DNA of 64,000 nt, from the NCBI RefSeq assembly GCF_003790525.1, contig NZ_CP033635.1; one strand, given 5' to 3'. Below are positions 11,262 to 35,203 of the stretch, piece by piece. Under the pieces are notes generated by a model. It had not been told where the DNA came from, did no database searches, and was given only the letters and a program-made list of their open reading frames with translations. How positions within the stretch are numbered: position 1 is the first letter of the stretch; every line of letters starts with the position of its first letter. Source of the stretch: Escherichia coli (GTDB lineage: Bacteria > Pseudomonadota > Gammaproteobacteria > Enterobacterales > Enterobacteriaceae). The position numbers and the translations under genes are program-made.

Positions 11262-12278
11262 ATGCAAAAGAAATCAATTTACGTCGCCTACACGGGCGGG
11301 ACCATCGGGATGCAGCGTTCCGAGCAGGGTTATATTCCGGTGTCAGGTCATCTACAGCGCCAACTGGCGCTGATGCCGGAATTCCATCGCCCGGAGATGC
11401 CAGATTTCACCATTCATGAATATACGCCGCTGATGGACTCTTCAGATATGACGCCAGAAGACTGGCAGCATATTGCTGAAGATATTAAAGCGCATTATGA
11501 CGACTATGATGGTTTTGTCATTCTGCACGGCACCGACACGATGGCGTATACCGCCTCTGCACTGTCGTTCATGCTCGAGAATCTCGGTAAACCGGTTATT
11601 GTGACAGGGTCACAAATCCCGCTAGCTGAGTTACGCTCTGACGGACAAATTAATCTGCTGAATGCGTTGTACGTTGCGGCGAATTATCCTATCAACGAAG
11701 TAACTCTCTTTTTTAATAATCGACTTTATCGTGGCAACCGTACCACCAAAGCCCATGCCGATGGTTTTGATGCGTTTGCCTCTCCAAACCTTCCTCCGTT
11801 ACTGGAAGCAGGTATCCATATTCGTCGTTTGAATACGCCACCCGCCCCGCACGGTGAAGGGGAATTGATCGTTCATCCAATCACCCCACAACCGATTGGC
11901 GTAGTGACGATTTATCCGGGGATTTCTGCTGACGTCGTGCGCAATTTTCTGCGCCAACCGGTGAAAGCATTGATTCTGCGCTCATATGGCGTGGGTAATG
12001 CGCCACAAAACAAAGCCTTCCTGCAAGAATTACAAGAAGCCAGCGATCGCGGAATTGTGGTAGTCAACCTGACACAATGTATGTCCGGTAAAGTGAACAT
12101 GGGGGGTTATGCCACCGGTAACGCCCTCGCCCATGCCGGCGTCATTGGCGGTGCAGATATGACTGTAGAAGCCACACTAACCAAACTGCATTACCTGCTT
12201 AGCCAGGAACTGGATACTGAAACCATTCGCAAGGCCATGAGCCAAAACCTGCGTGGCGAACTGACGCCGGATGATTAA
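11262..12278 (+). CDS. ansA: cytoplasmic L-asparaginase I
   Basis: 338 aa; asparaginase N-terminal signature YTGGTIGM. Confidence 0.93.
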   Translation: MQKKSIYVAYTGGTIGMQRSEQGYIPVSGHLQRQLALMPEFHRPEMPDFTIHEYTPLMDSSDMTPEDWQHIAEDIKAHYDDYDGFVILHGTDTMAYTASALSFMLENLGKPVIVTGSQIPLAELRSDGQINLLNALYVAANYPINEVTLFFNNRLYRGNRTTKAHADGFDAFASPNLPPLLEAGIHIRRLNTPPAPHGEGELIVHPITPQPIGVVTIYPGISADVVRNFLRQPVKALILRSYGVGNAPQNKAFLQELQEASDRGIVVVNLTQCMSGKVNMGGYATGNALAHAGVIGGADMTVEATLTKLHYLLSQELDTETIRKAMSQNLRGELTPDD

Positions 12279-32265: not shown

Positions 32266-32445
32266 GTGCAAAAATATTCAGAGCCATGCTTTTTGCGTGG
32301 CTTTTGCATACAATTTATTACTATTACCCCTAAATTTCCCCTCCCCAGCGGCGCAGAGATGAGTATAATTAGCGCCCCTGTGCCAGGCCGCAATCGAACT
32401 TTATCTGGTTTTCTCGTTTCACTAACCGAAGGAGTGCCATTTATC

Positions 32446-33936
32446 ATGAAATTGCACCATAGAATGCTCCGGCATTTTATCGCCGCAAGTGTCATTGTGC
32501 TGACATCTTCCTTCCTTATTTTTGAACTTGTCGCCAGTGACAGAGCAATGAGTGCCTATCTGCGCTATATCGTGCAGAGAGCAGACTCCTCCTTTCTTTA
32601 TGATAAGTATCAGAATCAGAGTATTGCCGCGCATGTGATGCGCGCTCTCGCTGCTGAGCAGTCGGAAGTGTCGCCAGAACAGCGGCGAGCCATCTGCGAG
32701 GCTTTTGAGTCTGCCAATAATACCCATGGCTTAAACCTGACTGCCCATAAATACCCTGGCTTACGCGGCACACTACAAACCGCATCCACTGACTGCGACA
32801 CAATTGTGGAAGCTGCTGCACTATTACCCGCTTTTGATCAGGCAGTGGAAGGCAACCGCCACCAGGATGATTACGGTTCAGGTCTTGGGATGGCCGAAGA
32901 GAAATTTCACTATTATCTCGATCTCAATGACCGCTATGTCTATTTTTATGAGCCGGTTAATGTTGAGTACTTTGCGATGAATAACTGGTCCTTCCTGCAG
33001 TCAGGAAGTATTGGCATCGATCGCAAAGATATTGAAAAGGTATTTACCGGGCGTACCGTATTATCGAGCATTTACCAGGATCAGCGTACTAAACAGAACG
33101 TGATGAGTTTGCTGACGCCGGTATATGTCGCAGGGCAGCTAAAAGGGATTGTGCTGCTGGATATTAACAAAAACAATCTGCGGAATATCTTTTACACTCA
33201 TGACCGCCCTCTCCTCTGGCGTTTTCTCAATGTCACGCTAACTGATACCGATTCGGGGCGCGACATTATCATCAACCAGAGCGAAGATAATCTGTTCCAG
33301 TATGTCAGTTACGTCCATGACTTACCGGGCGGCATTCGTGTCTCGTTATCCATTGATATTCTTTACTTTATCACGTCTTCGTGGAAAAGCGTTCTGTTCT
33401 GGATTTTGACGGCGTTAATTTTGCTGAATATGGTGCGGATGCACTTCCGTTTATACCAAAATGTGTCGCGAGAAAATATTAGTGATGCGATGACTGGACT
33501 CTATAATCGCAAAATTTTAACCCCTGAACTGGAGCAGCGGTTGCAGAAACTGGTGCAATCCGGTTCTTCGGTGATGTTTATTGCAATTGACATGGACAAG
33601 TTAAAGCAAATAAATGACACCCTTGGTCATCAGGAGGGGGATTTAGCGATTACGTTATTAGCTCAGGCGATTAAACAATCGATTCGTAAAAGTGATTATG
33701 CCATCCGACTCGGTGGCGATGAATTCTGCATCATTCTTGTCGATTCGACACCGCAAATTGCAGCACAACTGCCTGAACGTATCGAAAAACGTCTGCAACA
33801 TATCGCGCCGCAGAAAGAGATCGGCTTCTCTTCCGGTATTTACGCGATGAAAGAAAACGATACGTTACATGATGCGTATAAAGCTTCCGATGAGCGTTTA
33901 TATGTCAATAAGCAGAACAAAAACAGCCGTTCATGA
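32446..33936 (+). CDS. dgcJ: diguanylate cyclase with periplasmic sensor domain
   Basis: 496 aa from MKLHHRMLRHF with GGAG Shine-Dalgarno; canonical RLGGDEF (K-12 yeaJ); ORF-track 60-codon extension rejected. Confidence 0.88.
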   Translation: MKLHHRMLRHFIAASVIVLTSSFLIFELVASDRAMSAYLRYIVQRADSSFLYDKYQNQSIAAHVMRALAAEQSEVSPEQRRAICEAFESANNTHGLNLTAHKYPGLRGTLQTASTDCDTIVEAAALLPAFDQAVEGNRHQDDYGSGLGMAEEKFHYYLDLNDRYVYFYEPVNVEYFAMNNWSFLQSGSIGIDRKDIEKVFTGRTVLSSIYQDQRTKQNVMSLLTPVYVAGQLKGIVLLDINKNNLRNIFYTHDRPLLWRFLNVTLTDTDSGRDIIINQSEDNLFQYVSYVHDLPGGIRVSLSIDILYFITSSWKSVLFWILTALILLNMVRMHFRLYQNVSRENISDAMTGLYNRKILTPELEQRLQKLVQSGSSVMFIAIDMDKLKQINDTLGHQEGDLAITLLAQAIKQSIRKSDYAIRLGGDEFCIILVDSTPQIAAQLPERIEKRLQHIAPQKEIGFSSGIYAMKENDTLHDAYKASDERLYVNKQNKNSRS

Positions 33937-33978
33937 TAACCTTCTGTAGTTGTTTGCTTGTAATCTCAGGAGCATGAA

Positions 33979-34482
33979 ATGACTGAAATGGCTAAAGGAA
34001 GCGTGACGCATCAGCGGTTAATCGCTTTATTATCGCAAGAAGGTGCTAACTTCCGCGTCGTTACCCATGAAGCGGTAGGTAAATGTGAAGCGGTGTCAGA
34101 AATTCGTGGCACCGCTTTAGGCCAGGGGGCTAAGGCACTGGTATGTAAAGTCAAAGGCAATGGCGTAAATCAACATGTTCTGGCGATCCTCGCTGCCGAT
34201 CAACAGGCCGATCTGAGCCAACTCGCCAGCCATATAGGCGGATTACGCGCTTCGTTGGCCAGCCCAGCGGAAGTCGATGAACTCACAGGCTGTGTCTTCG
34301 GCGCGATCCCCCCTTTCAGCTTCCATCCAAAACTCAAACTGGTTGCCGACCCCCTACTCTTCGAACGATTTGATGAAATCGCCTTCAATGCAGGCATGCT
34401 GGATAAATCCGTTATTTTGAAAACCGCGGATTATTTGCGTATTGCGCAACCAGAACTGGTCAATTTCCGCCGCACTGCGTAA
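33979..34482 (+). CDS. yeaK: YbaK/ProX-type aminoacyl-tRNA deacylase
   Basis: 167 aa. Confidence 0.85.
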   Translation: MTEMAKGSVTHQRLIALLSQEGANFRVVTHEAVGKCEAVSEIRGTALGQGAKALVCKVKGNGVNQHVLAILAADQQADLSQLASHIGGLRASLASPAEVDELTGCVFGAIPPFSFHPKLKLVADPLLFERFDEIAFNAGMLDKSVILKTADYLRIAQPELVNFRRTA

Positions 34483-34587
34483 CTAGCCTGTCCGTTCAAT
34501 AAGCAGAACGGACAAAACCAGCACAGCAGCAATGGCAAAAAACGATGACGTGATAATCAGTGTCTCGACGAACATTTGATCGTTCAT
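34483..34587 (-). CDS. yoaI: small membrane protein (34 aa)
   Basis: Read by hand on the minus strand: [34 protein letters not shown]; below the ORF-track size cutoff; stop abuts the yeaK stop. Confidence 0.6.
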
Positions 34588-34756
34588 AGTATGCCCCCGG
34601 GAGATAGCTGTTTTCACGTTATTGTTAACGTACACAAATGGCAGTTTGATGACAGTTCGTCTGATTTTTTATGCAAAAAACGTAAAGATTTTCTACTTCC
34701 TGCCTGCAGCAAGCGTAAAGTAAGCAGGCTTATTATTTTTTGGCAAGGAAACCACG

Positions 34757-35203
34757 ATGTTTGATGTCACTTTGCTGATCCTGCTCGGGTTAGCTGCGCT
34801 GGGCTTTATCAGTCATAACACCACTGTCGCCGTTTCAATTCTGGTGTTGATCATTGTCCGCGTCACACCGTTAAGCACCTTTTTCCCGTGGATTGAAAAA
34901 CAGGGGCTAAGTATCGGGATAATCATTCTGACGATTGGCGTTATGGCTCCCATCGCCAGCGGGACGCTACCGCCCTCAACCCTGATTCACTCATTTCTGA
35001 ACTGGAAATCGCTGGTGGCAATTGCAGTCGGCGTTATTGTCTCCTGGCTGGGGGGGCGCGGCGTGACGTTAATGGGCAGCCAGCCGCAACTGGTCGCCGG
35101 GCTGCTGGTGGGCACTGTTTTAGGCGTGGCGCTGTTTCGCGGCGTACCGGTTGGCCCGCTTATTGCCGCGGGTCTGGTTTCGCTGATTGTGGGGAAACAG
35201 TAG
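34757..35203 (+). CDS. yeaL: UPF0756 inner membrane protein
   Basis: 148 aa, four predicted helices. Confidence 0.85.

Follow-up and report, generated by a model that had tools for sequence, protein, structure and literature searches.

The small membrane protein gene yoaI between yeaK and yeaL in a 64,000-nucleotide stretch of Escherichia coli DNA

We identify positions 34483-34587 on the minus strand of the Escherichia coli DNA analyzed here as yoaI, a real small-protein gene whose characterisation has already been published. The whole account given below, including control of the gene by PhoB and action of its product on the sensor kinase EnvZ, has in our estimate a probability of about 95%. 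The gene is already known and routinely annotated, and it is not a new discovery. The DNA in question is a single stretch of 64,000 nucleotides, called the window throughout, and all coordinates refer to it. Gene identity, selection on the reading frame, a single helix, and an intact Pho box and key residues are shown here. What is said on regulation by PhoB, on translation, on location in the membrane, and on activation of EnvZ would carry over to the window from published experiments in E. coli K-12.

Identity and genomic setting

Read on the minus strand, 34483-34587 gives 34 codons followed by a TAG stop (ATG AAC GAT ... GGC TAG), a coding sequence backed by its translation, NCBIfam model NF041475, the RefSeq annotation, conservation of the frame, and the pN/pS ratio. 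A first-pass annotation made from the letters of the window had proposed a 34-aa peptide at this place, and its peptide is an exact match to the minus-strand translation, after which TAG follows. It had also described the stop as directly abutting that of yeaK. This is the case, as the yeaK TAA occupies 34480-34482 and the yoaI TAG 34483-34485, with zero bases between them. The convergent neighbour yeaK (33979-34482, plus strand) encodes a 167-aa aminoacyl-tRNA editing-domain deacylase (Pfam PF04073, 3.3e-27; RefSeq). On the other side, the DUF441 membrane protein gene yeaL (34757-35203, plus strand; Pfam PF04284, 2.7e-44; RefSeq) is the divergent neighbour and served as the synteny anchor. 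The start of yeaL at 34757 is 169 nt from that of yoaI. This setting, convergent with yeaK and divergent from yeaL, is the position of the YoaI family.

The mechanical six-frame open reading frame (ORF) that contains the yoaI frame begins at a GTG at 34635 and is 50 aa long, the longest such ORF over the gene. Because it reaches only 50 aa, yoaI is hidden by any 60-aa filter, just as the first-pass annotation had pointed out for the cutoff of its ORF list. That 60-aa cutoffs miss real genes is true and long established. Mechanical calls and annotation also differ elsewhere in the window. At dgcJ (32266-33936), the mechanical ORF runs for 556 aa from a GTG, compared to a RefSeq coding sequence of 1,491 nt (496 aa), and the extra 60 N-terminal codons are probably not translated.

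The name YoaI had been offered in the first-pass annotation and is borne out here. The window peptide scores 79.8 bits against NF041475 (small membrane protein YoaI, an equivalog model) at a cutoff of 45, with E = 1.1e-22, and the match is full length, spanning residues 1-34 of the peptide and all 34 positions of the profile. In RefSeq, the same place between yeaK and yeaL carries a yoaI annotation. A Pfam search returned no model for the peptide. There was also a weak, sub-threshold match to the 29-aa small membrane protein YldA (NCBIfam NF041476; 20.3 bits, E = 4e-4), which extends across the hydrophobic helix. Membership in that family was rejected with a score so far under its cutoff of 45, and the similarity probably reflects transmembrane composition rather than homology.

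The locus is nearly universal among complete E. coli genomes. Queried with 501 nt around the site, 5,411 of the 5,426 genomes give a match, and yeaK, yoaI, and yeaL features from RefSeq are present on every match among the matches listed. The 105-nt coding sequence itself occurs as one copy per genome in 5,410 of the 5,426 at ≥90% identity. The window protein is identical to the product of the yoaI coding sequence in strain SK1144, annotated as WP_000999628.1. It differs by V21A alone from WP_000999630.1, found in a strain (4.63-Mb) that we take to be a K-12 derivative.

Compared to YoaI of E. coli K-12 (b1788; NF041475; WP_000999630.1), the window gene is alike in its place between yeaK and yeaL, in its length, and in its Pho box, and 33 of the 34 residues are identical. 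The sole amino-acid difference lies in the transmembrane helix at codon 21 (34525-34527, minus strand), which is GCT (Ala) in the window and encodes Val in the K-12-type allele. Position 21 varies freely among orthologs, where Ala, Val, Ile, Phe, Met, Leu, Ser, and Thr all occur in a 29-sequence alignment. A further four differences from K-12 within the first 32 codons are synonymous. The Pho box, Shine-Dalgarno motif, start codon, and helix are all retained in the window allele, as are residues Ser26, Val27, and Glu31, and this allele most likely behaves as that of K-12 does.

The PhoB promoter and the junction with yeaK

Upstream of yoaI, the Pho box TGTCATCAAACTGCCATT at 34637-34654 (minus strand) is identical to the PhoB binding site located by ChIP-seq between yoaI and yeaL in K-12 (Fitzgerald et al., PMC10294691). 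In that study, yoaI RNA stood at 12,266 in the wild type vs. 28 in a phoB deletion, a difference of ~400-fold, and occupancy of the gene by RNA polymerase and sigma-70 was PhoB-dependent by ChIP (PMC10294691). The activity of a K-12 yoaI promoter reporter (YFP) likewise depends on PhoB (10.1101/2024.09.13.612970), and the yoaI ortholog of O157:H7 is induced in phosphate starvation (PMC3978041).

The box is the best-conserved element upstream of the gene. Among the 34 orthologous copies described in the last section, 32 carry a match (TGTCA-N6-TGTCA type with at most two mismatches) located 61-78 nt before the start codon, and a conserved tA..aataa block comes after it. Pho promoters usually have their -10 element ~10 nt downstream of the box. 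The window follows this Pho-regulon pattern, with two TGTCA-type direct repeats 11 bp apart and a -10 element 10 nt downstream. We placed the promoter from the Pho box together with the conserved -10-like block, and on position and conservation, the putative -10 hexamer is AACAAT at 34621-34626 (minus strand). Transcription would then start near 34613-34615 and leave a leader of ~27 nt. A generic sigma-70 promoter scan of 33900-34900 found no promoter-like site on the yoaI strand, a result that is uninformative because a PhoB-dependent promoter has no -35 element. In the mechanism that we propose, phosphate limitation would lead PhoB to activate yoaI transcription, with the Pho box at 34637-34654 taking the place of the -35 element.

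The tight junction with yeaK raises the question of whether the locus acts mainly or additionally as RNA, with PhoB-driven antisense transcription into the yeaK 3′ end lowering yeaK in the manner of an excludon. The stops of the two genes abut in the window and lie between -4 and +21 nt apart in every species having both, and the scan of 33900-34900 found no intrinsic terminator-like site downstream of yoaI on the yoaI strand. We also sought a terminator by folding 141 nt around and downstream of the yoaI stop, and none was found (z = -0.47). Moreover, yeaK-yoaI appears in an MG1655 list of convergent excludons derived from RNA-seq (PMC12288877), and yoaI RNA changes ~400-fold with PhoB (PMC10294691). 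However, selection on the amino acids and the phenotypes of Glu31 point mutants, both presented below, indicate that the peptide itself is functional, which speaks against antisense as the main role. An Rfam scan of 34300-34800 with E up to 1 gave no matches, and neither the 3′ region nor the leader showed unusual structure, so a primarily non-coding role is unsupported. We regard the antisense proposal as unlikely, though still the strongest of the alternatives, and antisense activity is at most an added role and not a replacement for the function of the peptide. If it were true, phosphate starvation would be coupled to lower levels of YeaK, a deacylase that clears mischarged tRNA.

Another overlap of this kind lies close by. 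The 3′ ends of yeaL (plus strand) and nimR (minus strand) overlap by 44 nt at 35160-35203, identically in RefSeq, and this pair is also on the published MG1655 excludon list (PMC12288877).

The peptide and its reported action on EnvZ

We favor the reading in which yoaI acts through its protein, and the predicted structure of this protein is simple. Kyte-Doolittle windows of 19 residues peak at 2.59 over residues 10-30, with a GRAVY of 1.31, and AlphaFold2 run on a 29-sequence alignment returned one continuous helix over residues 2-33 at a mean pLDDT of 93.9. Both agree with the description of a hydrophobic single-helix membrane peptide in the first-pass annotation. The predicted transmembrane core comprises codons 9-30 (34498-34563, minus strand), on the evidence of hydropathy, AlphaFold2, and published fractionation of the K-12 protein. 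In published work, predictions together with a C-terminal GFP fusion put the N-terminus outside the cell and the ERTG tail in the cytoplasm, and YoaI of the window presumably has the same topology. Codon 31, GAA (34495-34497, minus strand), encodes Glu31, which is reported to be essential for binding and activation of EnvZ. In the 29-sequence alignment, M1, F16, and V27 are invariant, and I12, V24, S26, L28, and E31 are conserved at ≥90%, with Asp replacing Glu31 in two distant orthologs. Ser26, Val27, and Glu31, all present in the window peptide, were invariant in a published alignment of 57 species (10.1101/2024.09.13.612970).

What is known of YoaI function in K-12 comes from Vellappan et al. 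(10.1101/2024.09.13.612970; also cited as Sci Signal 2025). In low Mg2+, the Ribo-RET initiation signal at yoaI rose ~12-fold, and chromosomally encoded YoaI-SPA was found in the membrane fraction, where it was most abundant at the lowest Mg2+ (10.1101/2024.09.13.612970). Initiation profiling and a tagged fusion, which the first-pass annotation had suggested as checks, are thus already published for K-12 (10.1101/2024.09.13.612970). Transcription of yoaI was unchanged in low Mg2+, and YoaI abundance was independent of PhoQ. In two-hybrid assays, the signal between YoaI and EnvZ was strong, and there was none with PhoQ or PhoR. Deletion of yoaI lowered omrB promoter activity only 1.4-2 fold, and overexpression of YoaI raised it >7-fold in an envZ-dependent manner, with reciprocal changes in ompC and ompF. 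The E31A and E31Q substitutions abolished both the EnvZ interaction and omrB activation, and the protein was retained in the membrane (all 10.1101/2024.09.13.612970). The interaction is known from two-hybrid and reporter assays of one laboratory (10.1101/2024.09.13.612970), and both a subsequent review and a paper from 2026 take the role of YoaI as an EnvZ modulator to be established. In addition, a published CRISPRi screen found that knock-down of yoaI sensitises cells to CCCP, an effect in which polar effects on the neighbouring genes may have had a part.

Together with the promoter described above, these reports suggest a course of events. The 34-residue YoaI would insert in the inner membrane with one transmembrane helix and its ERTG tail in the cytoplasm, and its level would rise further at low Mg2+ by a step after transcription. 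It would then bind the sensor kinase EnvZ in a manner that needs cytoplasmic Glu31, and the output of EnvZ-OmpR would be stimulated, with omrB and ompC going up and ompF going down.

In this role, YoaI resembles other small modulators of sensor kinases, such as MgrB and SafA. These are single-pass inner-membrane proteins that are induced by one two-component system and that, bound to a histidine kinase, serve as connectors or feedback elements. The particulars differ. MgrB is PhoP-induced and inhibits PhoQ in negative feedback, whereas YoaI is PhoB-induced and activates EnvZ. SafA is EvgA-induced and activates PhoQ, and YoaI, by contrast, gave no two-hybrid signal to PhoQ or PhoR. A further functional likeness is to MzrA, a 127-aa inner-membrane activator of EnvZ. 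For each of the two proteins, binding to EnvZ and an increase in EnvZ-OmpR output have been reported, and each ties another signalling system to EnvZ. For MzrA, this other system is CpxAR. MzrA, at four times the length, has a periplasmic domain, whereas YoaI is almost without extramembrane sequence. MzrA acts through the periplasmic domain of EnvZ, whereas the action of YoaI is proposed to go via its cytoplasmic Glu31.

One reported effect of YoaI lies outside this scheme. The overexpressed protein prolongs lag, and the delay is abolished by deletion of phoQ and not by deletion of envZ or by the E31 mutations (10.1101/2024.09.13.612970). Because this growth lag depends on PhoQ and not on EnvZ, a second YoaI target that is PhoQ-dependent and EnvZ-independent is likely to lie behind it. 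A small hydrophobic single-helix peptide whose overexpression slows growth independently of EnvZ (10.1101/2024.09.13.612970) could also be taken for a type I toxin of the Ibs, Ldr, or Hok kind, acting mainly by membrane damage. However, loss of the lag in a phoQ deletion argues for a specific pathway over general membrane damage, and yoaI, which is single-copy and not in repeated loci, is driven by a PhoB promoter of its own. The peptide hits the YoaI equivalog without hitting any toxin family, and no antisense or antitoxin RNA family was matched by Rfam in 34300-34800. A toxin-like role is therefore very improbable.

Start codon, coding evidence and distribution

Returning to yoaI as a gene for an EnvZ modulator, its start codon is the ATG at 34585-34587. 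This follows from the promoter geometry, the stops found upstream, the spacing of the Shine-Dalgarno-like motif, and the HMM match, which starts at this Met. The motif, GGGGG, lies 6 nt upstream of the ATG (34594-34598, minus strand), and most orthologs have a purine-rich GGGG, GAGG, or GGAG at the same place. The mechanical ORF reaches the GTG at 34635 without an in-frame stop, and the real product might on this ground be a longer 50-aa protein begun there, or one begun at a GTG ten codons before the ATG. Several findings are against this. The GTG (34633-34635) sits between the Pho box and the putative -10 element, upstream of the likely transcription start. Of the 34 orthologous copies, 24 have an in-frame stop 5-28 codons before the ATG, and ortholog leaders vary by indels that are not multiples of three. 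The GGGGG is spaced for the ATG, the HMM match covers 1-34 of 34 from this Met onward, and the Ribo-RET peak reported for K-12 falls on the annotated start (10.1101/2024.09.13.612970). With the promoter placed as it is and the extension not conserved, we excluded a GTG-initiated product, which in our view has only the slightest chance of being real.

We also folded the leader and early coding region (34540-34616, minus strand) in search of a hairpin that covers the Shine-Dalgarno site and might account for the reported post-transcriptional induction in low Mg2+. At -10.7 kcal/mol (z = +1.2), this region folds no better than shuffled sequences, and there was no sign of structure hiding the Shine-Dalgarno site. 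In some Citrobacter leaders, a possible CUCUG/CGGGG pairing across a 6-nt insert was seen by eye, and it was dropped from consideration since E. coli is without the insert.

An open frame of this size carries little information by itself. When the 274-nt gap between yeaK and yeaL was shuffled 5,000 times, 39% of the shuffles held a complete ORF that begins with ATG and reaches 34 aa or more. The ORF alone is thus within chance, and therefore the case for yoaI rests on conservation and family membership. To assemble orthologous regions, we anchored 80 loci from different species on YeaL, used no small-ORF calls, and ran tblastn on what lies upstream of yeaL, both in these loci and in two E. coli records with annotation (L001 and L002). 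Apart from the window, 34 sequences have a YoaI-like frame at this position, L001 and L002 among them. They come from Escherichia, Salmonella, the Citrobacter koseri and amalonaticus groups, Trabulsiella, Enterobacter, Kosakonia, Yokenella, Pluralibacter, Cedecea, and others. All 34 copies are intact, at 29-36 aa, with ATG as the start in 32 and GTG in 2. The first-pass annotation had named conservation of the frame in related species as a check and frame-disrupting changes as grounds for abandoning the claim, and the claim stands, as no such changes were found.

Selection was assessed in a subset of 29 sequences (the window and 28 orthologs) that align gap-free over 32 codons. Mean column entropy was 0.77, 0.35, and 1.28 bits at codon positions 1, 2, and 3. 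Pooled, uncorrected pN/pS was 0.34 in the yoaI frame, compared to 1.07 and 1.83 in the two remaining frames of the sense strand and 0.50-2.12 across the antisense ones. The yoaI frame is the sole one of six that is open in all 29 sequences, and each of the other five has stops in 20-29 of them. Entropy, pN/pS, and the pattern of open frames are those of a protein-coding gene under purifying selection. That yoaI might be a chance open frame in an intergenic spacer with no protein produced is next to incredible: the 39% of shuffles with an ATG ORF of at least 34 aa and an earlier study, quoted in 10.1101/2024.09.13.612970, whose quoted result left YoaI-SPA undetected in rich medium, are outweighed by a Ribo-RET peak and membrane-fraction western blot in K-12 (10.1101/2024.09.13.612970) and by an equivalog HMM score above cutoff, and we excluded this reading on the frame being intact in all 34 orthologous copies across many genera and on the substitution pattern, with its three-base periodicity, its low pN/pS, and no other frame always open.

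The gene is not retained everywhere. Adjacent yeaK and yeaL were found in 57 sequences (including the window, L001, and L002), of which 32 have yoaI and 25 do not. The gap between the two neighbours measures 249-326 nt with yoaI and mostly 115-147 nt without it. Gaps that lack the gene include those of the Citrobacter freundii group, Klebsiella, Raoultella, and Kluyvera, and in many (L009-L018, L026, L033, L053, L055, L062, L063, L066, L071, and L073), yoaI and its promoter are cleanly absent together. Five long gaps without a tblastn match, in Kluyvera species and at locus L047, contained no hydrophobic small ORF or YoaI-like ORF. No yoaI-like match occurred at a non-syntenic place in the fetched loci, which cover ~2.5 kb on each side. 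Because it is missing from the gap in 25 of 57 sequences, yoaI is conserved but dispensable in many enterobacteria, with absence judged within the yeaK-yeaL gap.

Two observations on these gaps deserve mention in their own right. Four Kluyvera gaps without yoaI (L064, L068, L074, and L082; 246-324 nt) have a different conserved stretch in common, which is not hydrophobic and which on the yoaI strand is read as ...QVFFNF(C/Y/W)(R/S)GFQAFA in TTG-initiated frames of differing length. The second concerns E. coli strain A30 (NZ_CP092500.1, L083:1915-3085), in which an IS5-family transposase gene lies between yeaK and yoaI. The insertion, which corresponds to window positions 34483-34503, cuts yoaI after codon 28 and leaves a 31-aa product, MNDQ...LSVLRLC. 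LIERTG is lost, including Glu31, and RefSeq still annotates the product as YoaI. From its sequence, the A30 gene looks like a natural loss-of-function allele.

As a discovery, this finding has little weight, given that virtually all complete E. coli genomes already have yoaI in their annotation and that its regulation and target were established by a 2025 study. It is useful as a control, showing that reading of raw sequence can recover a true 34-codon gene hidden by a 60-aa ORF filter. What tells the real gene from the many chance ORFs of its size is conservation of the frame at synteny-anchored loci, periodicity by codon position, and conservation of a regulator site. The sole biological addition of the window is a common natural allele, V21A, that keeps all known functional determinants of YoaI.
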